A DNA stretch of 64,000 nt from Schmidtea polychroa. Its lineage: Eukaryota. The stretch lies in the NCBI GenBank assembly GCA_044892525.1, contig CM097885.1, positions 30,134,001-30,198,000 on the forward strand, read 5' to 3'. The notes beneath the pieces are model-generated. The model was not told where the DNA came from, ran no database searches, and was given only the letters and a program-made list of their open reading frames with translations. Positions 1,546 to 60,860 of this stretch are shown one piece after another. Made by a program: the position numbers and the translations under genes. Each line of letters opens with the position of its first letter. Positions within the stretch are counted from its first letter, which is position 1.

Positions 1546-1834
1546 ATCTATAGAAAGAGTGTGGCTTTGCTATTTCCCGATACTCGCGGTCATGCATTCC
1601 GAGCTTTATTGGCTTTTCTCAAGGTAAAGGATAACTGGCGCTATCATAGAGTCAGAGATTGGTGTGGTTTTTCTAAAAATTAAAATTTACAAAAATAGCC
1701 GACAATTTCTATATTTGCTTGCTGTATTTATGAAAAGTGGAGACGCGATGAAACAGTTGAAGATTCCCACGGCACTCAACATATTAAAATTCAGGCTCAC
1801 ACGAATAGATTAAAAATGATATTACTGAACTTAC

Positions 1835-2581
1835 TTTTGATTTAATTCTTGCTGTTCCTGATTCAACTGATTTCAATTTGTAAGAATATTTCACAAATTG
1901 AGGCAGAGATTTTCTTTTCAAGACAATCACAATATTTCCATGGCAAAACAAAAGAATAACAAATGGAAGAGAATAAAAAATTATTAAATCTGTTAAATGA
2001 GCAAGCTCAAAATATATCTTTTCATACCGAAATGAACAATGAAATGTTATTGTTCCATCGTCGACATATGTCACTTTGATAGTTGTTAAGAATATCCATG
2101 AACCACTATAAATAAAAGTGAAAATCCAACCAACGACTATGGACTTAATTGCTGTTTGCAAGGTACCGATCCGCCTGATTTTGACACGCCAGCAAATCTG
2201 AAGCCATTTCTCGATTGATGCTTGCAAAATTGACACAATGGAGCCTGTGATTCCCAGATATTGCATGAAAACAACCAGTGAACAACCAACATAATCCAAA
2301 TTCCAATGATCGGGAATGGAAAGAATTTCTGCCATAAACGGAACTGAAACAGAACATAAAAATAGAACATTTGAAACTGCCAATGACATCAAATAGCAAT
2401 TCGTCGACGACCAAAGAGATTTCACTCGTAGAAAAAGAATAATAACTAAAACATTACTGGGAATTCCGGTCAGTAAAACCGGTAAAATCGTACTAATGGC
2501 AACAAATTTGTATAAGATGGAAAAATAGGTAATACGAAAAGTTTCTGAATTATTGACAAACGAAGGAAATGAGATATTCAT
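1835..2581 (-). CDS. Rhodopsin-family GPCR, thyrotropin-releasing hormone receptor-like; first coding exon (TM1-TM5)
   Basis: ORF 1784-2581 has five hydrophobic helices, the motifs TNCYLMSLAVSN and GCSLVVFMQYLGI, an ECL2 Cys and DLIIFYSLPF. A phase-0 GTAAGT donor follows RIKSK (ACTTAC at 1829-1834). The TM6-7 exon was not found in the window. Confidence 0.8.
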
Positions 2582-2870
2582 CAGTAAAATTTTATTTTCT
2601 AAAAATAATGAAAATCTTCTTTTATAGCTAGCTACCTAGTCTAGAGAAAATATTCAATTACTGACCAAAAATGATTTAGTTATGAGCCAGTTATTTTTCT
2701 TTCGGTAAAATATTGGGAAAGTAATTTATTTATTTAGATTGGTGAATTCAATTTAGTTTCCCCTAGAAGATTTTGATTCCTGATGATATTTTTTTAGAAA
2801 CTTTTATTCGTAAGAAAAGTGTTTATTTGAAATTTTTTTTTGGTAAAACACATTAAATAATAATAATAAT

Positions 2871-3260
<390 letters not shown>

Positions 3261-3744
3261 TCCTGGAATTTATTTTCTATTTGAAAATGCTTTTTGACCT
3301 TCTCTTTTATTTCCTCTTTCTTATTTCTCATCATGAGAAGTCTAGTGAAGTCGTATGTGAAATGGGGTATGCTGCTATTTTTCTTACAATTTATTCATAT
3401 GGGTACAGGTCGAACTAATCTCTAGGAGAAGTCAGAGAGGAAGAATTTTATTCTGCTTGACTGAGCATTGATGCTGAGACAAATATTGCTTATCAATGTT
3501 CTATAGCAGGGGTCACAAACACGAGGCCCGCAGCGTTGTATTTTGCAGCCCTCAATGAACCACACAGATATTCTAGTTTAATATCAATAGTTTAAAAGCT
3601 GGTAAAAATAAAAAGTCATCGTGAATTTCTAGTTCTTTTTCTTATCTACCAAAATCCATAAAATTTTCAAAATTCGCAATATCAGTGGATTCATTGATAC
3701 ATAATAATGAAAAAAGAGAAATATCGGAGAGTAACATATGCTTT

Positions 3745-3930
3745 GCATTATCAGATATCGATGATTCGTCGATGAATTGTATTATTTGAGAGAACACAGT
3801 CAAAAGTATGTCTTGCCTTATTGCCTATCGTTACTTCTACCATTATATTAATTTCAGGCTTGATTAAATTTTCTCGAATCGTCTCCGCTGCACTGCATTT
3901 CGCAACTATAAGCAATCGCAATATGCAATA
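3745..3930 (-). pseudogene. hAT (Buster/ZBED5-like) transposase fragment
   Basis: Peptide AETIRENLIKPEINIMVEVTIGNKA...LSNNTIHRRIIDI aligns by eye with AHTIGETLLLPVAKDIV...LSNNTVKSRIDDM of the transposase at 58396-59262. Confidence 0.65.
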
Positions 3931-4669
3931 ATTCTTCTTCTTTTCGTTCCATAGGAGCATTAACAATTCAACTCTATCCAGTAAAAAACGTTCCAATAAA
4001 GAGACCCAACTTGGTTTAGAAGTCCAACAACTACGATAAACAATTGAGTAAAAAGCCGAAGAAATTAAATAGTTATAATCAACCTGGTCAGCACCTAATA
4101 AGGCATCGGCTCCTCCAACGAATACGGTCCAAGCCACAGTTACTCCGACCTAGGAGTCTTATATCTACTTCAAGCCAAATTTGGACGACCTAAACTTCCA
4201 TGTGGACCCGCTTCCGTGAAAGAAATTTTTGAAGTTTAAGCATGTACATACGTCAATGTTTTTTTGTAATTTTATATGTGGTAATTATCAAATCTTTCAT
4301 GTCTTAATTATTTGTTATTGTAATAGTGGTAGTACTTTCAAGTAAATTGTTTCTTTTCCGTAACATAATAAGAAAGGAATTCCTGACGGTTTCGTTTCAC
4401 TCATTTCATGGTAAGAATTAGTTTATCCCCCGTAACATACAGTAAACCTAGTTCGGCATAGTAACCAATCGAACATAGGTTGGCACTATTTCGACACTTA
4501 ATGAATGATTAGCTTTCTACTTGGATCGGTAGATTCTTTTGAAAGTCATCACCAAATCGGACCTTGCTATTTGCTTTAGGCGTAAAACCTTCTATCGGCA
4601 GTCCTAATAGTTGAGACGTATATGGGTCGAGCAGTCGGATTAAGCAAGCTCACTTTCGACCATATATAC

Positions 4670-7313
4670 CAGGGCTGGCAAAAGCGTCGACCGCGGTCGA
4701 CTGGTCGACCGTGTAGCTATCGAAAGTAGCCCGCTAGCACTATGGAAAATTGCATATAAAAATCAGTTTTTTATTTATTGAATTTCTAACTTTATAAACA
4801 TATTTAAAATAAGTTTCGATTCATATGACAAAAAAATTCCAATAAGAAACATAATATTAGTCAGATAACACTCAGAGTGTAGTAAATTTTTAGTTTGAAA
4901 TTCAAATATATACAGTTAGCTAATAATCAGAATAAATTTCATGTGTTTGAACAAGTAGGCCATAAAATAAAAGCAAAACATTGACGCTACAATCTTCGAT
5001 AAGGAATAAAAAAATAAAAAACAACCAAAATAAAATACAACAAACGTGTGTTTGTCTATTTCAATTTTGAAATCAAATTGTTTTCGTTAGAAAAATTTGA
5101 AAGCTTGAAGTATTCAGTATTGAATAATACCTGCTTATAATATTAATTTCAAAATTTTTTTATTAAAAAAAATTCTTTATAAAAGTTAACATTTTTAATT
5201 TTTGAGTATGTAAGTGTGTTTAACATTAATTTTCATATTAAATTTATTTTAGCTTTTATTATTTTCTTGTTTTAGCCCCAATGACACAACCGGCCAAAAA
5301 AACTAAAACGTACCATTATAATACTGAATGGGAACAGGAATTTTTTTTCATAATGATGAAAGATAAGTGTGTTTGTCTCATTTGTAATTCAAATGTAGCA
5401 CTACCTAAAAGAGCTAACGTTGAACGACATTTTCGAACAGTGCACAAACAGTATGAAATTGACATTCCGAGGTACGAAAAGACAAAGTCAAGCAGTTAAA
5501 GTCTCAATTAGGTGCACAACAAACTTTTTTTACGAAATTTAACTCAAAATCAAAAACAGCTACCCTAGCATCATTCAAGGTAGTTAATATTTTGATGAAA
5601 CATAAAAAACCTTTTGGAGATGGCGAAATATGGAAACAGGCGTTTATTGAAGCTGGTGAAGTGTTATTCAAAGATTTTAAAAATAAATCCGAAATAATGG
5701 ATTGTATCAACAATATGTCATTGACGCGCAATACTAGCACGCAAAGAATGGTGGACATTAGCAAAAACTTGGAAGATATTTTGCGGCAAGATATTCGAAA
5801 ATGCCGCTTTTTCTCTTTGCAATTTGATGAATCTACAGATTTCACTGATACTGCGCAACTATGCATCTTCATTCGAATGGTTTTTGATGATATGTCAACC
5901 AGAGAAGAATTATTGACTATTCTTCCAATGAAAGGACAAACAAGGGGTCAAGATATTTACAATTTATTCAAGTCTTTTATAAGTCGCACCCATTTCCCGA
6001 TTCACAAGTTGGTATCAATTACCACGGATGGAGCTCCGTCTATGATCGGAAAACATGTCGGATTTGTAACACTTTGCAAAAATGATGAAGAAATTCCCAG
6101 TTTTCATTCGTATCATTGCATTATCCACCAGCAAACCTTATGCTCCAAAGTGTTGAACTCTAACTATGTAATGAATATTGCGTTTAAAATAGTAAATTCG
6201 ATACGTGCAAGAAGTCTACAACGACGTCAATTTCGAACTTTGCTTGAACAATGTGAAATTGAAAATACTGAATTATTGTTACACACGGATGTAAGATGGC
6301 TTAGCCGTGCAGCATTTTTAAAACGATTTAGAGATCTTTTGCCCGGAATAAAACAGTTTTTGACTGGAAGAGAAGAATTATATCCCGAACTGGAGGATAA
6401 AAGTTGGCTGATAAATCTTGCTTTTCTTTGCGACATTACAGAGCACCTGAATAAATTAAATTTACAGCTTCAGGGGAGACACAAATCAATTCTTGACATG
6501 ATAACGACAGTAAAGACGTTTAAAGAGAAACTGTCCTTGTTTGTGCGTCAACTAGAACGGGGTGATTTGAAACATTTTAAAAACATGGAAGAAGAATCCA
6601 AAAATGCGCCAGGAATTCTTTACGATAAATATACAAATCAAATTACTACCCTTTTAAATGAATTTAACACACGTTTCGCAGATTTATCTAAAATTGCAAA
6701 TATTGCTATGTTCATGTCATTCCCGTTTAATGATGTTATTGATACAGAGGAGATCGCTACTCAGATTAATGAATTTCTGGATTCAGATTCAGCTTGCTTA
6801 GAAGATAAGATAATAGCGTTGAAAAGCGACATTTACTTAAAATCAAGAGCTACAACCGAAGATAATTTTTGGAATCTTATTTCAGAAGAAAAATATCCAA
6901 TTTTGCGGAGAGTAGTTGGATATATGTCCGCATTTTTTGGATCCACCTATCTTTGTGAATCAGCCTTTTCTTCAATGAATGTCATTAAAACAAAACATCG
7001 ATCTTGTTTGACAGATGATCATTTGGAATCATGCTTGCGGATCGCCATAAGCTCCTATTGCCCGAAATACGAAAAACTTGCTGATAAGATGCAGTGCCAC
7101 GTATCAGGTGCAAGTAGTAGCAGTAAATAATATTATATTAAGATATGTTTACGTTCTAGTAAAGTATTATAAGTTTTTTTCAAATTTGTTTTGTATTTAA
7201 ATAGAATAAATAGAATAACTACAGGTAACAATTGAAAATAGTTTTTCTGGTAGACCGCCAGATTTAATTTAGTTAAAAGTCGCCCGCAAGACTTGAAAGT
7301 TTTGCCACCCCTG
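4670..7313 (+). mobile_element. Full-length hAT DNA transposon (Buster/SPIN/GTF2IRD2-like)
   Basis: TIRs CAGGGCTGGCAAAA / TTTTGCCACCCCTG; 8-bp TSD ATATATAC (4662-4669, 7314-7321); transposase inside. Confidence 0.95.
5281..7130 (+). pseudogene. hAT transposase, single frameshift near 5470
   Basis: N-terminal zinc finger CVCLIC...ERHF..H (5281-5470), then a second frame with SLQFDESTD, TDGAPSM, HCIIHQ, VRWLSR and FGSTYLCESAFS to the stop at 7130. Candidate 5' intron GTAAGT...TTTTAG at 5210-5276. Confidence 0.9.
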
Positions 7314-12780: not shown

Positions 12781-14439
12781 TATCTTCTTATTAAAATATC
12801 TTATTACTTTTATTTATTATAACTGTTATGTATCAATATAAGTATATATTATTACGTGTTCTATTTATACTTAAAAATAAAATGTAATTTCTTAGTACCT
12901 GTTTTATAGTTTATAATGAAAATATATTGTCGGTAAATTCATTAAAGGCGCCAAGAAAATATTTATATCAGGGCGCCATGACCCATAGGACTAGTACTGC
13001 CTCTTCTACTATTCGAACATATCTAATTTGAATCTTTTTCATTTTATCAGAAGTAATTCTCACTGGAATTTTGATCTCATGGCCAGTCAAAACGAGTTTA
13101 TAGGCTTAAAAATACTATTAATTTTATTACTTTTTATCTTTGGTAAATCAATTATTTAATAAATTTTTTAAATTATTTTTTTAATTATTTGTTCATTTAT
13201 TAATAATTATTTTTTATTTATTTAATAATTTTGATTTCTGATATTGTCATACCAGAGTCTGGTAACCAGACAATAATTGCTATTTCAAAGAGCGACCAAC
13301 GTCCACTTAAGGATTTTGCATTTGAAGCTAGTAATTTGATATTAATCATACTGATTATATTGTTAAGGACCACGATTTGTAAATGACGACCTTCTCAGTA
13401 ATAAGTATTATTCTCTAAACCTTTGTCTATAAGTATTTTTAATTACTTTTCTGAAGATTCGCAGTTTAAGAATAGATAAAGCGTAAAATAATTACTTCCA
13501 TTTCAGACAAAATTTGAAAAGTGAATTCAACTAAAAGAGTGAGGATATAATCCTTAGGGTACGCTGTTATATACATTTTGAGAATGATTCATTGTGATAA
13601 TGTCAATTATGACAAATAGACTTTCGAAGATACAGCCGGGCTTTTGGATTATATGCTGAGTGGAAATTTAATTTCTCCGATGAAACCACAAGAGGATTAA
13701 AGTGATAAAATATTGTCCATATCTTAGAATTCCTCTCTACTCATTGATATGAATTTAAGTTCAACATTTTTAGTAACTGTTCACTTCAATTAAAGTTTCC
13801 ATCTTTGATAATTATTTATATATAAACTCCAAAGGCAAAAATAAAAATTTTACTATTTGTGGGGTTCAATGAGATAAGCACAAAGACGAGGTGAAAATCA
13901 ATAAAAACATCAAATTCACAATAATATTTTAAAGTACAAAAATATTAATTTAAAAAATCAAAAAAAAGTGAATATTTTTCGGGGGAACTGATATCTACGG
14001 ATGCCGAACAATGAGACGATTTCAAATATAATAAAAATAAAGTTAATAAAATAGCTAATAAAATAAATCTTGTTCTATTTACTCTCAGCTCTATTTTATG
14101 AATATAGATCTTTGTTTGGTCGATAGATATAACTTCAATCATGTTTATAAAATGAACTGGATAAATTCATTGTGTCTGTGACATGTGAGTGTGTGTCTAT
14201 GATCTGTGTGTCTGTGACATCTGTGTGTGTGTGTCTATGATCTGTGTGTTGGTGAAAAGGGTGTTTGTTAATATAGTATTAGAGCTGTATTTACACCTAA
14301 CCGCGAAAGTTAACATTGTCTATAATATACGTTGGTGTGCACACCACCTGAGGTGAGTCACCAATTATATGACAATGTTAACTTAATTTCATTTTTTCAA
14401 TTTTTCAAAAAATTGTTTTAAGGTAAGTTTTTGAATTGA

Positions 14440-14510
14440 AGTAATTTTTAGGACTTGAATTTTGATTTTATATAATTATGAGATCATTATTCAAGTTCTT
14501 AAATATTACT
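14440..14510 (+). ncRNA. Candidate bantam-family pre-miRNA hairpin 1 (predicted 3p product 14479-14500)
   Basis: ~33-bp stem with G:U pairs and a small terminal loop; 3' arm TGAGATCATTATTCAAGTTCTT; lies in intron GTAAGT(14423)...TTTCAG(14565). Confidence 0.7.
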
Positions 14511-14682
14511 GTTAGTCATCATTTATAATTTATCATTTATAAATATATTAATAATTAAATTTCAGGTGTTTTTTTAGGAAATTTATGATATTTTATGCAT
14601 TAATATGGAATTATTTCGCTAAAATGTAAGTTAAATATTTTTATATTTATAAATAAATAAAGTAATCACCATACACATTTTA

Positions 14683-15269
14683 CGTTGCATAAAAATTGGC
14701 TTCGACAAAATCCAACAAATTATTTCCCTGTTCTTCTGAAATAATTTGTTTTCTGCCACTTCTTTTTCCTTTTGTAATTTCGGCATATTTCTTATATTTG
14801 TAAATTATTGAAATAATTGAATTTTTGGGGATTCCGAGCAATCTTCCAAATTCTTTATAATTGTCCCCATTTTCAAATGCATTAATAAGCCGAATTTTGT
14901 TTATTCCTGTAATTCTTTGAAAATATTAATTTGTTAAAATAATTTATTAAAATTTACGATTTGCGATTTTTTTCCTGCAAATTCGAAGTTGTCGAAGGAC
15001 CTTCTTCAATATTTGAAATGGTACCTTCATGCAAAGAAATATCTGTTATACTGTAAAATATTTTAATATTTTATATTTTAATGAATAAATCTTACATTGT
15101 CAGATCTTCAACTTCGCAAAAAGCCACTGTGTCCTGTGAAATATCTGTAAATCTAAAGAAATTTTATATTCCAAATTATTTTATAATTAAATCTTACGAT
15201 GTATCTTCTTTTTTTCCCTAAAGCTCAACGTAGAGCAGTCGGAGTCTGATTCAAAAGATTTTTGTACAT
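14683..15269 (-). pseudogene. Four-exon N-terminal fragment of a Tc1/IS630-type transposase
   Basis: GT-AG introns at 15197-15153, 15095-15051 and 14957-14915. The last exon reads ITGINKIRLINAFENGDNYKEFGRLLGIPKNSIISIIYKYKKYAEITKGKRSGRKQIISEEQGNNLLDFVEAN (HTH followed by a GRPR-like motif); the catalytic domain is deleted. Confidence 0.75.
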
Positions 15270-15765
15270 AATTTTTTAAATAATTTAAAAATATTGATAT
15301 GTTAATTATATGTTAATCAATCTTAATTTCGCATGAAAAACACTTTACTTAATTTTGTATGTATTTTTCATTATGTGTGCTGTGCTTGTATGATTAATTA
15401 TTTTCTCTCACTTTTTAGATTCCTATAATAAATATGTTAAATTTCGCGGCATTAAATTTCTACACACAGGTAAGTTTGTGTGTTCTTATAATATATATTT
15501 ATTGATTTTTTTTTAGATTATAGATAATGTTATATTTCGCGGTTAGGTGTATTTAGTCGAGAATTTCTTAACTATTGAGTTAAAAATATATTTGTATCTA
15601 GTTCTAGATTTCGAGGACGAAAATTATTTTTAATAGAGAGATATGTTGAGGTAATAGAATAATCAAATAAATTAATAGAAATAAAAATAAAAATTAAATT
15701 ATATTTATAATTAAATGAAGAAGAGATGTGAAAATTCGGTCAGGGATAGAATTGATAGAGTAAAG

Positions 15766-27432: not shown

Positions 27433-28062
27433 TTAGAATTCTATTGTTTCAGCAATTCTATCAAGGAGGTCCTCATTATTTGAAGTGTAAACCTTCATTG
27501 AAAGGTGTCTAAAATCACTATTGGAATCTGATTTGATTGTTATATTATTTGTAAGGTGATGAAAGGACTGGATTAGATTCAATTTCAATTTTGTTTTATA
27601 TTCGTCTTTTGTTTCAGTTACTGCATTATTGTTGTCAATAAATACTGACATAAATGTTGAGTTTTCAATTGTCAAATCCAGTTGCATTGGGACAATTGTT
27701 TTGACTTGGAATATATGAACGGTAGTTCCAATGTACGCATTGTCCACGGAATGTCGGAATAAAAAGATCCTGTATTGTTTAGTAATCTTCCACTGGACAA
27801 TTGTTTGTACCACAACATTTGGCTGAATTTCATTTTCATATCTGAAGTTATTGAAAGGTGTCCTGTCTAAAGGACACTTTGAGATTCGGTTTTGAAATAT
27901 TAAAGACAGGAGACATTTGTGATGAAAGAAATGGGTTTCACAACAGGAGGGAGAAACTATTAATGATAACTCATCAAAACTCTCATAACAAATTGTGCAT
28001 AAATTGTCTTCTTTCACGATATTATTGCAATTGTGATGTATTTGACTCAGTTGACAGCTCAT
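27433..28062 (-). CDS. RING-H2 finger protein (putative E3 ubiquitin ligase), copy 1
   Basis: 209-aa intronless ORF: CTIC...CCETHFFHHKC...CPLDR (Asp as last ligand), plus an unrecognised ~140-aa C-terminal domain; AATAAA ~25 nt after the stop. Confidence 0.8.
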   Translation of the reverse strand: MSCQLSQIHHNCNNIVKEDNLCTICYESFDELSLIVSPSCCETHFFHHKCLLSLIFQNRISKCPLDRTPFNNFRYENEIQPNVVVQTIVQWKITKQYRIFLFRHSVDNAYIGTTVHIFQVKTIVPMQLDLTIENSTFMSVFIDNNNAVTETKDEYKTKLKLNLIQSFHHLTNNITIKSDSNSDFRHLSMKVYTSNNEDLLDRIAETIEF

Positions 28063-29521
28063 TGAAAATTTTAAAAATAATTATAATTAAATTTATTTAA
28101 AAATAATTTCTTATATAGATCGAGTGATGATTTAATGAAATTAAAATTCCTTTTTTTACGGAATTTTTTCATCAGAAAATTGTTTCCTTAATTTTTAAAA
28201 AAATTAATTTAATTTTTAATTTAAATGAAAATGAATTAACAATGAATTCAAATTATTTGTAAAACGACATGACAATAATTATTTTTAGGTTATGAAATAA
28301 CCCTTTTTTACATTCATAAATTTTATAAATAGAAGTTGTAGTAAAATATAAACAGAAATAAGCCTTTTTCAGTCTATTAAACAAATAAAATTTATAAAAA
28401 TATTTTCATATTTCATGAATTGAAAAGTAAAGTTTGTACAATCTTTTTACCGTTTTAATCTATTTGTAAGAAAGGCAATAAATATATTTTTATTTGTTTG
28501 AGTTGGCATAAATAAAGGTTGTTTTTATAATTCGTAAAACGGTTGTAAAAATAAAATAAACAAAAAATATTTATTTTAATGCCAGAGATATTTTGGAAGT
28601 TATTGAAAATAGATAAACACTCTTATTTCTTTTTAATAATTTAGCTTTTGTTGTATTGAGGATTCAAATTTTTTTTTGATTTTGCTTGAAAATATATTAT
28701 AAAAAGTTATGAAAATTTACTTCCAAAGATATGATACTTATGTTAGAGGGTAGACTCATCGACACATTAGTCCTATCTAAATACTGTAGTACAAGGTCAA
28801 ATAGATATCGAGTTAATATACTAGGAATAACCATCAAAGTGCATGTCAGCTCCACCCCAAAATCTCAACATCAAACATTCACAATATATCTATCATCTTA
28901 TAGTATTTTTTAAGGATATAATCAAATCAATCATTCAACTTTTTTAATTCAACATCAATCCAATCCAAACCCAACATCATTTATATGACATTTATTATGA
29001 TAGACAATTTATTGATGTGATTTGACATTCTAATAATTTATTTAGTGAGACAGTCAATTTATTATATTTTAGTATTAATTAAAAATTATATATTTATGAT
29101 CAATTTATTATTTTTATTTATTATTATAAAACAATTTATTATTAACAAATATGGTTAAATTTATTAACATTGAAATCAACAGAAATGAAAAATTAAAGTG
29201 TTTTAAAATGACAAAACAAATATAAGAAAAATCAATTTAAGTGTTTTTTGTTTGACATATGGGTAAAATAAATAAATAATTTGTATAAAAGCTGAAACAA
29301 AATTAGAAAAATTGCCACAAAATATTTTGGACCTTGGCGTTAAAAACATATATCATAGATTGACTCAAGGTAATCTTGTTCAGTCTCTAAAACTAAAATA
29401 AGAAACACAAAGATTTACAAAAAATCCTTGCATTATGAACATAACATGCACACAATAAGGTATTCAAATACATTGATATTTATATAACACATCTGAACAT
29501 TGAATTTTTATCTGTTTAAAG

Positions 29522-34845: not shown

Positions 34846-35931
34846 CACCTAATTCCGAAAGTTAAAAGTTTCTATAATCTAAAAAAATCGTAAAAATTAT
34901 AATATAGGAACACACAAACTTACCTGTGTGTAAAGATTTAATGTTCCGAAAGTTAGAAGTTTTATTACAGGAATTCAGAAAGTGACAGAAAAATAATTTT
35001 ACATACAAACACAGCACACATAAAATAAAATACATGCAAATTTATTATAGCTTTTTTTATTCCGAAAGTTAAAAGTAATTAACATTTTGTAAACAAATCA
35101 TTATTTTTAATATATTAAAATTCATGGCAGAAAAAATTTTTGATTTTCAATCGGACAACTCTACTTTGAGTTTTCGATAAAAGGACGACAAAACACCGTA
35201 AAATCTATTTATAAAATATTTTTGAAGTTATTATTTCTTTAGATATTTAGATATTTCTCTGGAAACGCTAGTTTTTAAGAAGGTGAAGAATTGACAATGT
35301 AAGAATTTTTTCATTTAATTACAAATAATTAAAATATTTTAAAGTATATCAGATATTTCTTGTCAAACGACTTTGTGTGAAGGTAGCATTTCTAATATTC
35401 AACAAGGTCCATCGGAAAACGTAAATTTTAATAACTTGTATAAAAAAATAATAATTTCATAGAATTACATAAAAAGACAAAATTCACCATACCAATGACC
35501 TGGAGAAAGAAGATTACAAAAACTTAACAAAGTTCTCCGCTTCTTCCTTAAATGTCTTAAAAAAATAAATGTGTTTGATGATTTCTTTATTTATTTATAG
35601 TTAAAATTATTAATCAAACTTACATTTTATCGAAATAATTCCAAATAAATTCATAGTCATACAAATCCTAAAGAAACCCTGAAAATGAATTAAAAATAAT
35701 TTATAATCAAAATGTTGACTACAAGTAACATTTAAGAGCTTGAATAGTGATCTCATAATTTTATAAAATCAAAATTCAAACCTTAAAAGTTACTTAAATT
35801 AAAAAAACTTACTTGTAAAATTGAATAAATGAAATGAAGTAAATAACTTCACATTCTCATAAATGGTGAGTCATCGACTGATGAACAGGCCAACGTGTAT
35901 TATAGAGACTTTAAACTTTTGGAATTAGGTG
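34846..35931 (+). mobile_element. CACC-ended Tc1/IS630-like transposon (copy A2)
   Basis: TIRs CACCTAATTCCGAAAG / CTTTTGGAATTAGGTG; TA flanks; spliced exons beginning ATGGCAGAAAAA at ~35124; C-terminal-like KVLRFFLKCLKK. Confidence 0.88.
35724..35794 (-). ncRNA. Candidate bantam-family pre-miRNA hairpin 2 (variant UGAGAUCACUAUUCAAGCUCUU, 35755-35734)
   Basis: Same stem as hairpin 1 with compensatory pairs; intron donor at 35812 and acceptor at 35679 conserved. Confidence 0.68.
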
Positions 35932-36560
35932 TACACCAAACACCATTGAGAACCGTTTACTATATTATAACAAAAAAATCAATAATCTTAAATTATAGAA
36001 ACATACATACTTACTTTGATTTCACATTGATGTTCTCATTTATAGCTCAGTGAGATACATCTTATATTATAGAAATCTGAAAAGTGGAAGAAAAATTTAA
36101 AACTGCACACAAACGCAACACATATTAAAAAACACATACAAACTTTTGATTCGTAGAAATGTAACGATGAGATACGTTTCTATAATAATTCTATTTTAGA
36201 CAATTTTTAGAAAAAAAAGATCGTTGAAAATTTTTTAAATTATATTTTTAATGAAAATATCAAGAACAGATGAATTTGGTTCAATATCTTTTTACTCCAG
36301 ATTTGATTTCCTTTAAGAATCCCTTCATATTGATCTCAGAAAAAAATTTACAAAAATTAAAAAAATTATTCTAATCAGCGATTTTTCCCAAAATGTTTTA
36401 AAAAAATACATTGATTGATATATTTATTTAATTAATTATAATTAAAATAATATATCGAACTCACATTTTTTTGAAATAATTCCATGATAAATGTCATAAA
36501 ATTCCTAAAAAAACCATGAAAATTAATTAAAAATAATTTATAATTATATTGTTGATTAAA

Positions 36561-36630
36561 AGTAATATTTAAGAACTTGAATAATGATCTCATATCTATA
36601 TGGATCAAAATTCAAGTCTTAAAATTTACT
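36561..36630 (-). ncRNA. Candidate bantam-family pre-miRNA hairpin 3 (3p product 36592-36571)
   Basis: Identical 22-mer; different apical stem (TGATCCATAT-AG-ATATGAGATCA) that still pairs; flanking splice sites appear degenerate in this copy. Confidence 0.66.
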
Positions 36631-36819
36631 TAAAATTCAAAAACTTATCTGAAAACGATTTTTGAAAAATTGAAAAAATAAAATTAAGTAAACATTGTCA
36701 CACAAAATAAATCTGCCTTACATTATATCGAAATAATTCGAAATTATTCTAAAATAAATTTATTAAAATTTCATAAAATTCCCTAAAAATTTAATTTATG
36801 ATACAAATGTTGACTAAAG

Positions 36820-36888
36820 GTAATATTTAAGAACTTGAATAATGATCTCATAATTATATAAAATCAAAACTCAAGCCTTAAAATTTAC
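36820..36888 (-). ncRNA. Candidate bantam-family pre-miRNA hairpin 4 (3p product 36850-36829)
   Basis: Identical 22-mer; complementary 5' arm; GTAAGT donor upstream on the same strand (ACTTAC 36904-36910). Confidence 0.66.
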
Positions 36889-37753
36889 TTAAAATTAAAA
36901 AAAACTTACTTTAAAGCAATTTCTAAAATTGAATAAATGAGGTTACAAACTTCATTTTCTCATAAATGGTGAGTTACCTAGAACTGGTGTACACACTAAC
37001 GTGCATTATAGAAACTTTTATATTTCGAGACAAGGTGTATAGAAGTTGTTACTCATTCAAACAAATTGCAGTGAGTTTCATGGAAGGAGATTTAAAAGCG
37101 TCTTTAAATTAGTAAACATTATTGTTAAAAGCTATTGTAGTAATTTTTAAGTTTGATGCGTATTAATACATTATACTTATAGCAATACTTATAGCATATT
37201 GAATTTAGAAATGGTGTGTTTATTAGCTAGTGTATCTAGTTCCTAATAATAAAATATCAATTCCAACGTGTTAAACAAAATTATTAGGTTATTAGTATAA
37301 ATACTTGTAATTAGACGGCATTATTGGAACCTCGAAAAATAATAATTTAATATAAACGAAGATATGGCTCTGAAAGTGCTTTTTTTACTTAGCTTAATGA
37401 AGTTTTATCTAGTTAGTCATTTTGTTATTTTTTGATATTTTCCACAATTTTTAATTATTTATTTTCCCTAATATTCATATTTATATTTTTTTTGCATGCT
37501 CGGAAAATTTTCTTACGCTCGAATGACATAAATCTTGTTGAATGTTATAAATTATATATGTTGCTTGTCACTGCTTTTTGTATGATGTTTCCTATAGAAA
37601 AATGATTGTGTTTTATTTTTTCTTTATTTTGGGTTCTTCATTACTGGAAATAGAGTCTTTTCTTGATACTTTATCTGTGTTAAAAATATAAGTTTGATAA
37701 TTTCAAAATCTAATCACTCAAAATCAAAATATTTAATAAAATGTAATTATACT

Positions 37754-37996: not shown

Positions 37997-39069
37997 TGGC
38001 GACCACGCCAGGACTCCAGAACTATATCAAGCCACCTAATCAATTGCTGCCAAATGGTGATTTAGAAATTTTTATTTTGGAATTGAAGAGATTTTTCGAA
38101 TTCACTCAACAACCGCAAGAAACTCAAGAAATTTTTACCAAGGCCTTTCTGTCGGTAGAGTTGATCCAGAAATATGAAGAAGTACAGAGCGATTATTCAG
38201 GCTATGAAGAAAGATTAAGAAAAGCGTTCGAGCCAAGGAAAAATCTAGCCATGGATCTAGACGCAGCTTTAAGATATCGAAAGGAAATGACTCGTGCACC
38301 GAATTTTTCAATAAAGTGGAAAAGCTCGTCGACAATGTTCTTCGACACAAATTAACAAAACCGGCATTAATGTTATTTTTAATGCAGAATGCAATGGAAG
38401 ATATGGAAACAAAAAAAAGAATTGAAATTAAGAGAAGTTAAATCAGTAGATAAGGCCAAGGAAGTGATATCAAGAATGGAAGAAATTCAAAAAGAGCTTT
38501 CAAGTGAGCAATCATTAGCATCTCTACATGAAAATAAATCATATGCGGAGACAGTCAAAAGTCCGAGAAAAACTCAGTTGTACCAACAGAATAAGACGCC
38601 AATATTTTCTAACTCTAGAACCAATGAGGCCGCGAACTTCAATATGCCAAATAAAAGTGACTGGAAGAACGGGACCAGGCGATTTAAACTGCAGAGATGT
38701 TGGGCGTGTGGAGAGCAAGGACATATTCGAGCAGAATGCCCAAACGTAAAATGCTCTCAATGTTCCAAAAATGGTCATTTCAAGCATCAATGTTGGGACA
38801 TCAGAAGAAATTCAGTTAAAACAGAAGCATATTACAACGGAAGAAATTATGATAGAAACCAAAAACAATTTGGATCCAGAGGACAATATCAAAGCACAAA
38901 CCAATCTTCAGACAGAGGACCACATCGAAGACAATGCAATGCGATATACGACTACGAATACGAGGAAGGAGAGCTGATTCAACAGGATGACATGCAAAAA
39001 GATTGCGAACAGCTAAAAGGGGAGGCTCCAGTTTCAAGGGAGTTGCTAGGAGCCATAAATTTGGTTTAA
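37996..39069 (+). pseudogene. gag, two frameshifts
   Basis: MATTPGLQ... with shifts near 38280 and 38415 in A-runs; two CCHC knuckles, CWACGEQGHIRAEC and CSQCSKNGHFKHQC. Confidence 0.85.
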
Positions 39070-42000
39070 GTAAGTATATTGTTGACACAGAATGTTTGAA
39101 TTTGAATGCTTGTGATTTCAAGATTTCCGTAATGAATGAATTTAAAAATGATTTAAAAATTAATGATGTAATTATGAATGATTGTGAATGTTTTGACTTT
39201 GAAAATTATTTTGAATATAGTTTTTATGAAATTAATAACAAAATTGATAAGATTATGAGTATCGATATAATTAATAATAAAGTTAATGAAAATAAAGAAA
39301 GACCTTTTGCACCTAAATTCGTTTACGAAAGAATGAATGGCAGACCTAGTGTAGGTATTTGGCTGGAAAATAAAATAAAAGTTGATTGTCTTTTGGATAC
39401 CGGGGCTAGAATAAACGTGATTAGCGAAGATGTTGTTAGTAAATTAAAGATGCGTGATAAAATAGGGGAATCCAATATTATGGTTACATGTGCAAACGAG
39501 AGCACACTTAAAATCATAGGAACAATATTACTAAAAGTGAGAATTTCGGGATTGGAATTGGTAATAAGATTCTTTGTGGCAAATAAGATTAACCCGAGCG
39601 TAATTGCAGGCGTAGAAATGATGAATTGTTTTGATATTAAATTACAGGCAGTAACTAAAGTAAAATTAAAAAATCAATTAATGAATTTAGAGGAAAACAA
39701 TTTGAAAGGAATTATCGACCCAACGATTAATAAATTACTTAAAGAATTTTCGGATATATTCATGAAAAATAAATGGGATGTAGGAAAAACACAGTTAATT
39801 AAACATAAGATAGTTACTAGAGGTAGCCCAGTGACAATTAATCCTAGACGTCAGCCGATTCATATTGCTCACAAAATACAAGACATGCTAAAAGACATGG
39901 AAGAAGCAGGAATTATAAAAAAAAATGTGACTCGGTGTGGAATAGCCCATTGGTATGTGTGTTAAAAAAGAATAAATCAGATATTAGAATATGTTTGGAT
40001 TTTCGGGCACTAAATGCAATTACGGAGAGACCTCGATTTCCAATACCAAATATTGAAGAGATGATGGATATCCTAAATGGAGCACAGATATTTAGCACTA
40101 TCGATCTTGGTAATGCTTATTATCAAGTGGAATTAGAAGAGGAATCAAAAATAAAGACTGCATTTTCAACAAAAGATGGTCAATATTGTTTTAACCGAAT
40201 GCCTTTTGGAATTGCAGCTGCTCCAGCAACTTTTCAAAAATTAATGACTCAAGTTTTGGGTGATCTTAATTGGAGAGAAGCAATTGTTTATTTAGACGAT
40301 ATCCTTATATTTGCAGATAATGAAATCGAACATAAAAAAAGACTAGAAAGAGTTTTTCGAAAGATTCAAGAAGCTGGTTTGAAAATAAGCTTAGAAAAAT
40401 GTTGTTTTAACAAACTAGAAATAAAATTTTTGGGACACATTATAAATAAAAATGGTATTAAGACAGATTATGAAAAGATAAAAGCAATGCAAGAATATGA
40501 AAAACCAAAATGTATTAAACGTTTAAGAAGCTTTCTAGGCTTAACAAATTATTATCGAAAATTTGTTAAAGATTACGCCAAGTATGCAAGACCATTAGAA
40601 AGGTTATGTGGGTCTAACAAAGATAAACTTATATGGACTGAAGAATGTGAAACAAATTTCAACACGCTAAAGAAAGCGTTAACGTCTACCCCAGTACTAG
40701 GATTTCCGGATTTACGAAAAACCTTTATTTTAGATACAGATGCTAGTTTCGATACGATTGGGGGAGTGCTTTCGCAGTTGAGTAGTAATGGACAAGAACA
40801 AGTTATTGCATATGGATCAAAGACAATGAATAAGCACGAAATCGGTTACTGCATTACGCGAAAGGAATTGCTTGCAATCTATCATTTTACTCAGCATTTC
40901 AAACACTATCTATATGGAAAAAGATTTACTTTAAGAACCGATCATAAAGCTATAACCTTTATGATAAATACAAAAAAGCCAATTACAGCACAATTCCAGA
41001 CATGGATTAACTATTTAAGTGGGCTAGATATCAAATTAGAATACAGAAAAGGAGAATTGCATGCTAACGCAGATGCCCTATCAAGGAAAGACTGTACTTC
41101 ATGTAGTCAGTGCCAAACAGTTCATGAAAACGCCAAGGTAGATAAAAATAAAACTAAAATATTGGCCATAGAAAATATGGACCAAGAAATAAAAGTAAAT
41201 AATGAAGGTGTAATTTTTAATATACATAAAGACTTATGTCACGCAGGGGTAAAAAAAATTTACGAATATGCACGGAAAAATATGAAAATGAAAATTAGTG
41301 AAAATGAAGTTAGAAGAGTGATTGAAAATTGTGAACAGTGTCAGAAACGGAAGACGTGGACAAGACGAACAAAAGAACCGCTGATTAAACAGAGTACAGA
41401 TGAAGTTTTCAAAGAGATATTTATTGATTTCTGTGGACCATTTAAGAAAACAATTCATGGAAAACAATATATTTTAGCTATAATTGATCAATTCAGTAGG
41501 TATATATCATTGACGGCAGTTGCTCATCAGGATGAAAAGACGACGGCAAAGATTTTAAGAGAAAATTGGATTTTGAAATTTGGTGCCCCTAAAATAATTC
41601 ACTCCGATAGAGGAAAAACATTTGAATCTCAACTCCTTTTAGAAGTGTTGAAAACGCATCATATTACAATAATATATTCAAGCCCATATCATCATAGTAC
41701 AAACGGTTTAGTTGAGAGGCAATTTAGAACTATAAGGGATGCAATTGCAATTACGTTAAAAGACAAACGGCATAAAGATTGGGCAGAAATATTGCCAGAT
41801 GTTAAATGCTACGATACAGCAGACAACCGGATTTTCGCCCTCTGAAATAATATTTGGGCGGAATATTTGTAGACAATGGATGGAAAAAGAGAATTTGGAT
41901 ATACAAAATAATGATGCTAATAATCAGAGAAGGGAGATCGTGGAGGGAATTAAACATAAACAAAACATAGAAAAGAATTTAATTACACAAAATTATAGGA

Positions 42001-43045: not shown

Positions 43046-44009
43046 CACCTAATTCCGAAAGTTAACATTGTTTATAATGCACGTTGGTGTGCACACCAGT
43101 TATGGTGACTCACCATTTGTGTGACATTTGTGTGTAATTTCATTTTTTCAATTTTTCAAAAAACGTTTTCAGGTAAGTTTTTGAATTTTAAGTAACTTTT
43201 AAGATTTGAATTTTGATTTTATATAATTATGAGATCATTATTCAAGTTCTTAAATATTACCTTTAGCCAACATTTAAAAAACAACATTAAAAAAAACAAC
43301 ATTTATAATATAAAATATTGATAATTAAATTTCAGGTGTTTTTTAGGAATTTTATGAATTTATTTGGAATTATTTCTATAAAATGTAAGATAGATATATT
43401 TTTAACTAAAAATACATAAAGTAATTACCGAAGACATTAATATTTTTAATACAAATAGGAAAGAAGCAACGTACATGGATAAAATAGTTATTTTAAATTT
43501 AAGCCGAATTTTGTCTTTTTCTGTAATTCTATGAATTGATTAATTTCTTTTTAATTTAATATTTTGTATTTTAATGAATTAATCTTACATTGTCAGATCT
43601 TCACCTTGGCAAAAAGGTAGCATTTCCAGAGAAATATATGAAAATCTAAAGAAATATTAACTTCAAAAATATTTTATAAATAGATCTTACAATGTTTTAT
43701 CGTCTCTTTTTCTACAGACCAAAGTAGAGTTGTCCGATTCTAGATAAAAGAAATTTTCCCCCATCATTTTAAAATTTATTAAAATTAATAACATATTAAC
43801 AATATGTTAATCAATGTTTAATTTCGGAAAAAAACACTATATTAATTTTGTATGCTTAATTATTTTTCTCTCTTTTTTAGATTCCTATAATAAATATGTT
43901 AACTTTCGAGGCATTAAATCTTTACACACAGGTAAGTTTGTGTGTTCCTATAATATAAATTTATTGATTTTTTAAGATTATAGGCTATGTTAACTTTCGG
44001 AATTAGGTG
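43046..44009 (-). mobile_element. CACC-ended Tc1/IS630-like transposon (copy A3)
   Basis: Perfect 23-bp TIRs CACCTAATTCCGAAAGTTAACAT / ATGTTAACTTTCGGAATTAGGTG; TA flanks; homologous exons. Confidence 0.9.
43191..43260 (+). ncRNA. Candidate bantam-family pre-miRNA hairpin 5 (3p product 43230-43251)
   Basis: Identical 22-mer; intron GTAAGT(43173)...TTTCAG(43335). Confidence 0.68.
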
Positions 44010-44447: not shown

Positions 44448-45077
44448 TTAGAATTCTATTGTTTCAGCAATTCTATCAAGGAGGTCCTCATTATTTGAAG
44501 TGTAAACCTTCATTGAAAGGTGTCTAAAATCACTATTGGAATCTGATTTGATTGTTATATTATTTGTAAGGTGATGAAAGGACTGGATTAGATTTAATTT
44601 CAATTTTGTTTTATATTCGTCTTTTGTTTCAGTTACTGCATTATTGTTGTCAATAAATACTGACATAAATGTTGAGTTTTCAATTGTCAAATCCAGTTGC
44701 ATTGGGACAATTGTTTTGACTTGGAATATATGAACGGTAGTTCCAATGTACGCATTGTCCACGGAATGTCGGAATAAAAAGATCCTGTATTGTTTAGTAA
44801 TCTTCCACTGGACAATTGTTTGTACCACAACATTTGGCTGAATTTCATTTTCATATCTGAAGTTATTGAAAGGTGTCCTGTCTAAAGGACACTTTGAGAT
44901 TCGGTTTTGAAATATTAAAGACAGGAGACATTTGTGATGAAAGAAATGGGTTTCACAACAGGAGGGAGAAACTATTAATGATAACTCATCAAAACTCTCA
45001 TAACAAATTGTGCATAAATTGTCTTCTTTCACGATATTATTGCAATTGTGATGTATTTGACTCAGTTGACAGCTCAT
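44448..45077 (-). CDS. RING-H2 finger protein, copy 2
   Basis: Protein identical to 27433-28062; I see one synonymous difference. Confidence 0.8.
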   Translation of the reverse strand: MSCQLSQIHHNCNNIVKEDNLCTICYESFDELSLIVSPSCCETHFFHHKCLLSLIFQNRISKCPLDRTPFNNFRYENEIQPNVVVQTIVQWKITKQYRIFLFRHSVDNAYIGTTVHIFQVKTIVPMQLDLTIENSTFMSVFIDNNNAVTETKDEYKTKLKLNLIQSFHHLTNNITIKSDSNSDFRHLSMKVYTSNNEDLLDRIAETIEF

Positions 45078-45274
45078 TGAAAATTTTAAAAATAATTATA
45101 ATTAAATTTATTTAAAAATAATTTCTTATATAGATCGAGTGATGATTTAATGAAATTAAAATTCCTTTTTTTACGGAATTTTTTCATCAGAAAATTGTTT
45201 CCTTAATTTTTAAAAATAAAAAAATTAATAAATTAATAATTTTATATATATATATATATATAGATAGTATTGTT

Positions 45275-50864: not shown

Positions 50865-50927
50865 TACACCAAACACCACTGAAAACCATTTCCTATAATA
50901 TAACAAAAAAATCAATAATCTTACATT

Positions 50928-51276
50928 CAGTGGCGTACCAAGGATTTCTGGGGCCCTTGTGCGGATTTTGGGACGCACAAAATATTTGTCGAACGAAGTG
51001 ATCCGAGGAACCAAACCATAGGCATAATTTAATAGATGAATGGGTGTGACATATGTGGTTTACAACTATATCCAATATAGATTCCTAATAATATTAAATG
51101 TATAAACCGTCCAAACTGTGGTTGCTGTCTTAATAAAAACAAAACAAACGCCAAAGCGATGCTTGGTTTGATGACAATCGGGGAATTTATAATGCTCGAA
51201 CGTATAAATTTTACTAATTTTTCGTCCTGGGCCCTTGTGCCGTGCACAACCTGCACAACCTATTGCTACGCCACTG
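50928..51276. mobile_element. hAT-type MITE
   Basis: TIRs CAGTGGCGTA / TACGCCACTG; TSD CTTACATT; the empty site is visible in the paralog at ~35987. Confidence 0.92.
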
Positions 51277-51414
51277 CTTACATTATAGAAACATACATAC
51301 TTACTTTGATTTCACGTTGATGTTCTCATTTATAGCTCAATGAGATACATCTTATATTATAGAAATCTGAAAAGTGGAAGAAAAATTAAAAACTGCACAC
51401 AAACGCAACACATA

Positions 51415-52359
51415 CACCCGTTTGCGAAAGTTAACATTGTCTATAATATACGTTGGTGTGCACACCAGCTGAGGTGTGTCACCAATTATATGACAACGTT
51501 AACTTAATTTCATTTATTCTATTTTTTAAAAATCGTTTTAAGGTAAGTTTTTGATTTAAAGTAATTTTTAGGACTTGAATTTTGATTTTATATAATTATG
51601 AGATCATTATTCAAGTTCTTAAATATTACTGTTAGTCATCATTTATAATATAACATATTGATAATTAAATTTCAGGTGTTTTTAGGAATTTTATGATATT
51701 TTATTTGGATTTATTTCGAAAAATGTAAGTTAGATATTTTTATAATTATAAATAAATAAAGTATTCACAAAACATTTATTTTTTTAAGACATTTAGTAAA
51801 GAATGGATAAAATATTTTTTAAGTTTTTGTAATCTTCTTTTGTCTTTTTCTGTAATTCTATGAAAATATTAATTTGTTAAAATAATTTATTAAAATTTAC
51901 GATTTGCGATTTTTTTCCTGCAAATTCAAAAATGTCGAAGAACCTTCTTCAATATCTGTAAATCTAAAGAAATTTTATATTCTAAATTATTTTATAATTA
52001 AATCTTACGATGTATTTTCTTCTTTTTCTCTAAAGCTCAAGGTAGAGCAGTCGGAATCTGATTTAAAATTTTTTTGTGCATAACTTTTTAAATAATTTGA
52101 AAATATTAATATGTTAATTATATGTTAATCAATGTTAATTTCGCAAAAAAACACTTTACTTAATTTTGTATGTATTTTTCATTATGTGTGCTGTGTTTGT
52201 ATGCTTAATTATTTTCTCTCACTTTTTAGATTCCTATAATAAATATGTTAAATTTCGCAGCATTAAATTTCTACACACAGGTAAGTTTGTGTGTTCCTAT
52301 AATATATATTTATTGATTTTTTTTAGATTATAGATAATTTTATATTTTGCAAACGGGTG
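51415..52359 (-). mobile_element. CACC-ended Tc1/IS630-like transposon (copy A4) nested in the B-type copy
   Basis: TIRs CACCCGTTTGCGAAA / TTTTGCAAACGGGTG; the empty site CATATTAAAAAAC at 36121 confirms a TA duplication. Confidence 0.92.
51560..51630 (+). ncRNA. Candidate bantam-family pre-miRNA hairpin 6 (3p product 51599-51620)
   Basis: Identical to hairpin 1; intron GTAAGT(51543)...TTTCAG(51675). Confidence 0.7.
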
Positions 52360-52801
52360 TATTAAAAAACACATACAAACTTTTGATTAGTAGAAATGAA
52401 ACTATGAGATACGTTTCTATAATAATTCTATTTTAGACAATTTTTAGAAAAAAAAGATCGTTGAAAATTTTTAAAATTATATTTTTAATGAAAATATCAA
52501 GAGCAGATGAATTTGGTTCAATATCCTTTTACTCCAGATTTGATTTCCTTAAAGAATCCCCTCATATTGAGCTCAGAAAAAAAATTACAAAAATTAAAAA
52601 AAATAGTTTAATCAGAGATTTTTCCCAAAATGTTTTAAAAAAATACACATTTTTGGTGATTTATTTATTTATTAATTAATTATAATTAAAAATATATCGG
52701 ACTCACGTTTTTTCGAAGTAATTCCAAGATAAATATCATAGAATTCCTTAAAAACCCTGAAAATTAATTAAAATTAATTTATAATTATATTGTTGATTAA
52801 A

Positions 52802-52870
52802 AGTAATATTTAAGAACTTGAATAATGATCTCATATCCATATGGATCAAAATTCAAGTCTTAAAATTTAC
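52802..52870 (-). ncRNA. Candidate bantam-family pre-miRNA hairpin 7 (3p product 52833-52812)
   Basis: Identical 22-mer in the divergent B-type element; donor (CTTACC ~52885) and acceptor (CTGAAAA ~52757) retained. Confidence 0.68.
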
Positions 52871-53080
52871 TTTAAATTTAATATCTTACCAGAAAACTAT
52901 TTCTAAAATGGCTGAAATAAATTTCATGATGAGCAATTCATACGTAAAAAAAATTACTGACAACTTTGCTTTATTTATCATCAACATCAGATGAAAATTC
53001 ATCAGTAAATTGGTGAGTGAGCAATCGCTCTACACGCAAACCACCACTATAGAGAATGTATCTCAGTGGTGTTTGGTGTA

Positions 53081-53490
53081 CACCTAAATCCAGAATATAA
53101 AAGTTTCTATAATCTAAAACAAAAATCGATAAAATTATATTATAGGAACACACAAACTTACCTGTGTGCAAAAGTTTAATGTTCCGAATGTTAAAATTTT
53201 ATTATAGGAATTGAGAAAGTGACAGAAAAATAATTTTACATACAAACACAACACACATAATATAAAATACACGCTTATTTAATGTAGATTTTTTTATTCC
53301 GAAAGTAGAAAGTAATTAACATACTGTTAACATATCATTAATTTAAAATTATTAAAATTCATGGCTGAAAAAAAATTGGATTTTGAATCTGACAACTCAA
53401 CTTTGAGTTTTCGAGAAAAGGATGACAAAACATCGTAAGATCTATTTATAAAATATTTTTGAAGTTAATATTTCTTTAGATTTTCAGATA
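53081..53490 (+). mobile_element. Truncated CACC-family copy (transposase 5' end)
   Basis: TA-CACCTAAATCCAG; exon MAEKKLDFESDNSTLSFREKDDKT from ATG 53361, then an intron GTAAGA...TTTAG. Confidence 0.8.
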
Positions 53491-60443: not shown

Positions 60444-60860
60444 CTATAGTGAAGGGGTCTCGATGGTCCTGGGATTTTCAATACAAAAAATTTTTTCTAT
60501 ACAAAAATCCGACTACCACTAAAAAAGCCAAGGAATTTTCAGACTATAGTGAGGGGGTCTCGATGGTCCTGGGATTTTCAATACAAAAAATTTTTTTCAA
60601 TACAAAAATCCGACTATCAATAAAAAAGTCAAGGATTATTCACACTATAGTGAGGGGGTCTCGATGGTCCTGGGATTTTCAATACAAAAAATTTTTTTCA
60701 ATACAAAAATCCGACTACCACTAAAAAAGCCAAGGATTATTCACACTATAGTGAGGGGGTCTCGATGGTCCTGGGATTTTCAATACGAAAAATTTTTTTC
60801 TATACAAAAATCCTACTATCAATAAAAAAGCCAAGGATTTATCACGCTATAGTGAGGTGA
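60444..60860. repeat. ~101-bp tandem repeat, four units plus a partial
   Basis: CTATAGTGAGGGGGTCTCGATGGTCCTGGGATTTTCAATAC... units start at 60444, 60544, 60645, 60746 and 60847. Confidence 0.95.

Follow-up and report, generated by a model that had tools for sequence, protein, structure and literature searches.

Introduction

MicroRNA hairpins borne by transposons are known in the form of microRNAs derived from miniature inverted-repeat transposable elements (MITEs) or from terminal inverted repeats (TIRs), such as mir-548 from MADE1, and the use of a host seed by a parasite is known from viral seed mimics, such as miR-K12-11 of Kaposi's sarcoma-associated herpesvirus (KSHV), which corresponds to miR-155. 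The closest precedent for the system described here is rice miR820, a microRNA gene within the CACTA family of DNA transposons that is proposed to act for the benefit of its carrier (Nosaka et al. 2012, PMC3459959). A 2019 review counted only three cases of transposon anti-silencing, all of them in plants (PMC6719617). Here we analysed a 64,000-nucleotide stretch of the Schmidtea polychroa genome (contig CM097885.1, positions 30,134,001 to 30,198,000; hereafter the window), in which elements of an IS630/Tc1/mariner-type (ITm) transposon family, including the one at 14294-15549, carry a microRNA hairpin with the seed of bantam. This cut-and-paste transposon appears to have captured a host bantam microRNA gene and to have spread it, while keeping it intact, to thousands of sites.

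The locus shares features with several described systems and differs from each of them. As with miR820, a microRNA gene lies inside a transposon family; miR820, however, is a rice-specific microRNA of a plant with a demonstrated target, OsDRM2, whereas the present carrier is an IS630-like element of an animal and its cargo is apparently a copy of a deeply conserved host microRNA. Unlike MITE- and TIR-derived microRNAs, the hairpin is not built from the TIRs, and unlike viral seed mimics such as KSHV miR-K12-11, it looks inherited from a host gene rather than convergent. The carrier resembles ITm transposons (PF13358, NF033545) in its TA target duplication, short TIRs, helix-turn-helix (HTH) and DDE_3 domains, but has a DD28E signature, three small 5' introns, antisense splice signals and the microRNA. 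The hairpin itself is that of mir-753 (RF04089; miR-753a-e) of Schmidtea mediterranea, where it has been listed as a few microRNA genes, whereas here it is the cargo of a transposon family with thousands of copies.

Results

A first-pass annotation, made from the letters of the window alone, had described six CACC...GGTG elements carrying seven hairpins, and both counts proved right. The 22-nt mature arm occurs seven times, six times exactly and once with two mismatches (35734-35755), while none is expected from 100 shuffles, and each of the six elements ends in CACC...GGTG, with a TA on either side. Each of the seven loci, when folded as that annotation had proposed, gave a long, stable, pre-miRNA-like hairpin with at least 16 paired nucleotides and a stem extended at its base (free energies from -25.1 to -33.6 kcal/mol; z from -6.8 to -8.7). 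A preference for the named strand through G:U pairs is clear in five of the seven, for which the opposite strand gives -12 to -18 kcal/mol; the suggested strand asymmetry does not extend to the two B-type hairpins at 36592 and 52833, whose opposite strands are nearly as stable (-26.2 and -27.5 kcal/mol). The mature arm starts 176-245 nt from the element end distal to the transposase start, or 445 nt in the extra copy of the composite element, and the hairpin is independent of the TIRs, as had been stated. The GTAAG...TTCAG intron noted around the hairpin in most copies was recovered with both splice sites intact in five of seven; both sites are lost at 36592 and the acceptor at 36850.

The bantam seed GAGAUCA was confirmed at positions 2-8 of the 3p arm in all seven copies, with the 5' end assumed from homology. 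Although the first-pass annotation knew of no earlier description, the RNA itself is not new: all seven hairpins match Rfam mir-753 (RF04089) on the named strand with 54.8-65.2 bits; three reach the gathering score of 62 and two more lie at 61.8 bits. Elsewhere in the genome, all 71 copies scored exceed this threshold, with up to 82 bits. The bantam model RF00727 matched one of the seven window hairpins, at 35.1 bits at best against a cut-off of 61.

The genome examined comprises 781 Mb, in which a 17-nt core of the arm occurs exactly 4,528 times, versus none for a control. Ten of these copies, all near one end of a chromosome, were sampled by taking every tenth among the first 100 in the list, and with the hairpin masked all ten lay within element sequence, one of them without its 5' side. 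A genome search with the HTH remnant as query yielded 2,260 candidates, of which 150 were scored, and all of the 20 loci chosen for long open frames encode an HTH-DDE frame of 330-341 residues. The hairpin lies antisense ~130-150 nt beyond the stop codon in 19 of these 20, with a changed seed in two of the 19. The catalytic triad is intact in full-length copies, and removal of three small 5' introns gives a 408-residue frame in one of them (L067), with which the window copy at 14294-15549 shares its splice pattern. The transposase scores 68.6 bits against DDE_3 (PF13358) and 118.6 bits against the IS630 family model NF033545 (cut-off 100), with a weak HTH_SB match. A sequence search of the PDB found only a weak match to the HTH of Sleeping Beauty, and the nearest database relatives are unnamed proteins with at most 48% identity. 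Tc1 proper is DD34E, with 34 residues between the second D and the E; this spacing is 28 residues (DD28E) in all eight aligned elements, which places them outside Tc1 proper. A TA target-site duplication in all six window elements, a 36-nt TIR and the HTH and DDE domains make the carrier, proposed as Tc1/IS630-like, an IS630/Tc1-mariner-type transposon.

The hairpin is carried by subfamilies A, C, D, B and E, whose proteins are 61-88% identical and form one clade (support 0.976). Subfamily E had seemed to lack it on the basis of copy L090, but this was rejected, since L090 is a deletion and other E copies carry the hairpin: six of eight extra copies have a recognisable arm and two have remnants. 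In family F (56% protein identity), the hairpin is missing in both copies read (L091, L092). The short 3' end of family F aligns in one piece in the best 40 of 1,059 candidates, 13 of the 40 being identical, and a bantam-like string in this end was dismissed as a subterminal repeat without a stem. Family F is itself a recently expanded DD28E group with intact frames (L091, L092), and an A element lies beside or inside an F element at L034. The single copy of subfamily G that was read looks truncated at its 3' end. The hairpin would therefore have been acquired by the common ancestor of A-E, or at an earlier point with subsequent loss in F. A local microRNA cluster derived from an element fragment was also seen, with six hairpin-bearing units in tandem at a period of 566 nt (G000:C2:23442979-23445899, L005-L010).

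The three best matches in a genome search with the bantam model are element-free host genes (50-58.5 bits, under the cut-off of 61). The mature sequence of one of them, L082, equals sme-bantam (PMC3840308), and the gene is nearly equal to the Dugesia japonica bantam-c precursor (PMC7722302). Host bantam genes (RF00727; dja-bantam-c, sme-bantam) and the transposon hairpin have in common the GAGAUCA seed on the 3p arm, the G:U pairs of the star and the donor-hairpin-acceptor layout; the transposon arm differs at positions 13-14 and often at 18 and 20, its loop is shorter, and the hairpin is mobile, multicopy and far below the RF00727 cut-off. The arm is identical to that of L082 at 18-20 of 22 positions, versus 14-18 of 22 for the other two host genes, and a profile of the element's 3' module gave 24.2 bits on L082 and 5.2 and 2.1 bits on the other two, falling to 2.3 bits on L082 when the mature arm was masked. 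A 501-nt L082 query found four other places genome-wide, two element copies and two element-free relics, and the best of the four is a transposon copy aligned over 123 nt. In the host gene and the element alike, a GTAAG donor precedes the arm by ~60 nt, an acceptor follows 75-85 nt from the start of the arm, and the same G:U pairs lie opposite the seed. Compared with 1,500 null windows, the likeness of the 5' half beats 1,478-1,500 of them and that of the segment 3' of the hairpin beats 1,438-1,497, with 3-62 scoring as high.

These alignments point to common descent from a bantam gene, specifically with L082, the flanks alone giving moderate evidence; by the same comparisons, support for the capture of an intron is good as regards the hairpin and moderate as regards its flanks. 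The first-pass annotation had left open whether the transposon captured or mimics bantam. Because the arm resembles one transposon-free host bantam gene, L082, capture is favoured and mimicry disfavoured. The host gene is the older partner, since a D. japonica orthologue exists while mir-753b in that species has 1-2 reads (PMC7722302, from two of the 15 occurrences of mir-753 in that paper), and the transfer probably ran from host to transposon. The two element-free relics, L112 (G000:C2:128714933-128714985) and L114 (G000:C1:187306942-187307020), combine host-bantam-like flanks or loop with miR-753-like arm letters; one is a 5' half and the other, on another chromosome, a 3' half, perhaps what is left of a captured host duplicate. 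In the old element copies L086 (G000:C1:9398463-9398536), L084 and L085 the arm is nearer to host bantam (up to 20 of 22), and these copies are possibly nearer to the captured state.

Across six lineage consensuses, the seed is invariant at 8 of 8 positions, the mature arm at 19 of 22, the star at 16 of 22 and the loop at 5 of 13, while the two sides of the basal stem are invariant at 9 of 11 and 10 of 15. The flanks are invariant at 74 of 212 positions (mature arm versus flanks, p=3e-6), or at 70 of 149 without the poorly aligned 5' flank (p=5e-4); mature and star arms do not differ significantly (p=0.46). Between subfamilies A and B the mature arms are identical at 22 of 22 positions and 4-fold-degenerate transposase sites at 39% (n=62, saturated). 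Pairing is kept in 96.8% of cells among 14 hairpins, mostly with one-sided changes. This pattern suggests that purifying selection has maintained the guide in the carrier clade across several radiations of its subfamilies, as it has maintained the transposase.

Conserved donors and acceptors on the hairpin strand predict a spliced non-coding RNA that would start near one TIR and have the transposase antisense as its intron. About 60 nt inside the hairpin-end TIR, a TGA(G/C)TCA motif, which we take to be AP-1-like, occurs in 46 of 79 distinct upstream segments versus 1.5% in the background, these copies being related rather than independent. Four sequencing runs, as contigs, showed no GT-AG joints among those listed against the full-length copy L062, a result that is uninformative on splicing or expression. 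A further antisense donor, 72-92 nt from the transposase-start end (window 15419-15516 and equivalents), is kept in A, B, C, E and F. The antisense splice signals predate the microRNA, because this donor is kept even in the hairpin-less family F; with their help the element could perhaps be removed from host transcripts by splicing.

In S. mediterranea, the mir-753 microRNA has been sequenced from both arms for miR-753b/d/e (PMC5671611). The 3p forms of miR-753d/e reach 2,600-3,200 normalised counts each, possibly with shared reads, and 5p counts were also reported; in the same comparison, bantam-a reaches 216,000 and bantam-c-3p 771 in intact sexual worms. After HDAC1 RNA interference or irradiation, miR-753 3p stays at ~1,800-4,100 normalised counts while bantam-a falls; the direction of the change in miR-753 is unreliable, because a single control, with more 5p than 3p, serves all three asexual comparisons. 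By these counts, miR-753 is present outside stem cells as well. The S. mediterranea mir-753 loci probably also lie in these elements.

Features of the window

The positions of the features are collected in Table 1. The element at 14294-15549 is 98% identical to L067 over two blocks, with ~740 nt of the transposase core gone at 14680/14684, and all six window copies are deletion derivatives without the DDE domain.

Table 1. Carrier elements in the window and the parts of the element at 14294-15549
Feature	Position	Strand	Remarks
Non-autonomous deletion derivative, subfamily A, of a ~1.99-kb IS630-like DD28E transposon	14294..15549		TA on both sides
TIR, hairpin end	14294..14329	+	36 nt, 89% match to 15514-15549
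TIR, transposase-start end	15514..15549	-
AP-1-like TGA(G/C)TCA motif	14354..14360	+	candidate inward-promoter element for the antisense transcript
Predicted intron GTAAGT...TTTCAG holding the hairpin	14423..14565	+	143 nt; alignable with the intron-like segment around host bantam gene L082
Pri-miRNA stem and basal stem	14440..14510	+	-31.3 kcal/mol, z -7.8
Rfam mir-753 match	14445-14505	+	61.8 bits
Mature 3p arm, miR-753-3p-like	14479..14500	+	bantam seed GAGAUCA
Predicted star (5p) arm	14452..14472	+	from the fold, given 2-nt 3' overhangs; ~6-nt loop left
Predicted non-coding antisense exon	14566..14625	+	a GT(A/G)AGT donor comes after it in every lineage with the hairpin
Predicted second antisense exon, near far end	15419..15469	+	GTAAGT donor kept in A, B, C, E and hairpin-less F
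Transposase gene, 5' part	14684..15269	-	predicted exons 15269-15198, 15152-15096, 15050-14958, 14914-14684 (HTH); DDE domain deleted
Family element	34846..35931		hairpin on - strand; mature arm 35734-35755, 2 substitutions
Chimeric element with unlike ends	35934..37037		two hairpins on - strand, 36571-36592 and 36829-36850; one TA in common with 34846-35931
Family element	43046..44009		hairpin on + strand; mature arm 43230-43251
B-type element	50867..53078		hairpin on - strand (52812-52833); nested family element and MITE inside
Nested A-like element	51415..52359		hairpin on + strand; mature arm 51599-51620

Elements abut end to end with one shared TA (GGTG-TA-CACC) at 35928-35937 and 53075-53084. 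One 16-nt pattern of such a junction was counted 52 times across the genome, twice within the window, versus once for a control, which suggests that insertion beside the end of another copy is favoured. The MITE inside the 50867 element (50927-51276) has CAGTGGCGTA ends and an 8-bp target duplication and is presumably hAT-like. An apparent long terminal repeat (LTR) retrotransposon contributes gag-pol-like frames at 38383-41842 (+), with reverse-transcriptase-like motifs judged by eye. Other long frames lie at 5463-7127 (+), 45421-46877 (+), 58399-59286 (-), 27436-28080 and 44451-45095 (-) and 1787-2635 (-); by eye they are probable pieces of hAT-type transposases, a RING-like frame present in duplicate and a receptor-like frame of hydrophobic character. 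The stretch 60485-63700 holds several satellite arrays, whose periods are about 101, 30, 13-14 and 7-21 nt.

Discussion

We propose that an ancestor of the IS630-like clade captured ~140 nt, comprising an intron and a pre-miRNA, from a host bantam gene, either the gene at L082 or a now-decayed duplicate of it. The captured piece would sit in a spliced non-coding antisense unit starting near one TIR, and Drosha and Dicer would process the hairpin into miR-753, a guide with the bantam seed and an altered 3' half, which the clade would then have kept under purifying selection while its subfamilies radiated. The most likely benefit would be the repression in trans of host mRNAs with bantam-seed sites (TGATCTCA) in cells where the element is active, with genes of cell death or DNA damage as candidate targets or, on the model of rice miR820, genes of silencing. 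Taken as a whole, from capture to the host-target step, this is the best explanation and a fairly probable one. Its first part, namely the origin and a selected microRNA function before any discount for host targets, is highly probable, whereas the benefit through host bantam-seed mRNAs is put forward tentatively. More conjectural still is the fully specified form, in which a transposon-captured bantam with a retuned 3' half, driven by its own, possibly stress-responsive, antisense promoter, would repress host cell-death, DNA-damage or silencing genes where the transposon is jumping.

Several observations weigh against this proposal or parts of it. A curation rule for canonical microRNAs asks for a loop of at least 8 nt, and only ~6 nt are left between the predicted arms if the 5' end is at UGAGAUCA. 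When the host hairpin is masked, the flanks alone give no nhmmer match. Covariation is weak, with a single pair showing double changes and 15 of 500 shuffles reaching the score. Within family A, 36 copies picked by their transposase regardless of the hairpin (39 examined, three dropped) showed arms that are not less variable than the flanks (4/44 versus 33/212 alleles, p=0.35). The expectation that the hairpin is conserved beyond its flanks therefore holds between lineages and fails within family A; an apparent conservation within families proved to be an artefact, since copies L001-L030 had been chosen for hairpin identity. Within-family variation gives no support to selection, yet it would be expected for a trans-acting cargo after insertion. 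The flanks of the module are far more alike than the 4-fold sites, and chimeric elements exist (35934-37037); therefore module exchange has occurred, and it may inflate the likeness between lineages. The hairpin is also not needed for transposition, because family F expanded recently without it.

Expression in S. mediterranea adds to these points. By the whole-animal counts of PMC5671611, miR-753-3p amounts to ~1-2.5% of bantam-a and adds little to the seed pool, and its counts persist where those of bantam-a fall. The comparison with MirGeneDB that the first-pass annotation had called for went against it, as the 107 S. mediterranea genes in the MirGeneDB 2.1 table include no Mir-753 entry; Sme-Bantam occurs there six times, presumably as three rows. 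The idea that the cargo keeps stem or germ cells alive found no support and is weak, because miR-753-3p is low relative to bantam-a and persists after stem-cell depletion. Bantam reportedly restrains apoptosis in Drosophila, which is not established for planarians. Because its share of the seed pool is low, any effect of miR-753 must be specific to certain cell types or depend on the changed 3' half.

Other explanations of the conserved hairpin place its use within the element. The captured microRNA, or abundant host bantam, could silence the element's own sense RNA: some 130-150 nt beyond the stop codon, the transposase strand contains a site perfectly complementary to the guide (duplex with miR-753, -31.6 kcal/mol), the same site pairs with positions 1-12 of the L082 bantam (-18.6 kcal/mol), its near invariance makes every subfamily a target, and self-control strategies of transposons have been discussed (PMC6719617). 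However, A, C and D have AATAAA-type signals 174-191 nt upstream of the site, so that the finished transposase mRNA probably ends before it, and a copy with a mutated site would escape the shared guide, which predicts divergence rather than conservation. We consider such self-restraint unlikely. The hairpin could instead serve as a cleavage site for Microprocessor and, together with the antisense splice sites, help to remove antisense or read-through RNA, the guide being a by-product and the payoff less double-stranded RNA and PIWI-interacting RNA production or less harm to host genes. It would fit such a role that the hairpin is 5'-most on the antisense strand, preceding the transposase antisense, that the basal stem is conserved, that mature and star arms do not differ significantly in conservation and that antisense donors are kept in all lineages, hairpin-less F included. 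It does not predict an invariant bantam seed beside a variable loop, and intronic cropping generally proceeds without ending transcription, which leaves this explanation improbable.

A captured hairpin might also hitch-hike neutrally near the TIR, homogenised by recombination between subfamilies and giving incidental reads, as the undepleted variants within family A, the chimeric elements of the window, the low expression and the absence from the MirGeneDB 2.1 list would allow. Within the same 300-nt module, however, conservation of the mature arm far exceeds that of the sequence next to it (p=5e-4, as above), and star and loop differ between lineages while pairing is kept, which recent copying of whole hairpins would not give; neutral decay within a genome is, moreover, expected for any trans-acting transposon cargo. 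A neutral passenger is accordingly quite improbable. A role of the DNA itself, as a palindrome or protein-binding site needed for transposition, would agree with the retention of the hairpin in all six non-autonomous window copies and with the folding of B-type copies on both strands. It is opposed by the strand-specific G:U pairs of five of the seven copies, by family F, which lacks the hairpin and shows 13 identical 3' ends among 40 scored, and by the sequencing of mir-753 as a microRNA in the congener S. mediterranea, and we regard it as extremely improbable. The preferred reading remains a captured bantam gene whose guide has been selected as a microRNA.

Conclusions

The small RNA itself was already known, and it is its transposon context that appears to be new. 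A literature search found no report of mir-753 as transposon cargo or as a descendant of bantam; the planarian small-RNA discovery papers (Palakodeti 2006, Lu 2009, Friedlander 2009) lay outside that search and may note a repeat origin. No animal DNA transposon with a captured conserved microRNA was found either, most subscription papers being outside its scope, and term searches of the main texts of PMC3854530, PMC11701709 and PMC10435380 gave no relevant mention.

A 'planarian-specific' microRNA family can now be re-read as the cargo of a transposon, descended from bantam. Thousands of sites perfectly complementary to bantam/miR-753 are spread across the genome, which bears on microRNA annotation and on how target sites arise. 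That a cut-and-paste transposon of an animal took up a host microRNA and has retained it can be tested in a tractable regeneration model: miR-753 could be blocked selectively, since its 3' half is unlike that of host bantam. As of the 2019 review, transposon-encoded regulators acting on the host comprised a few plant cases only (PMC6719617). The present results suggest that a transposon makes use of a host gene regulator, and if the repression of host genes is true, the system would parallel, in an animal, both viral microRNA mimicry and rice miR820, and would derive from a captured host gene.

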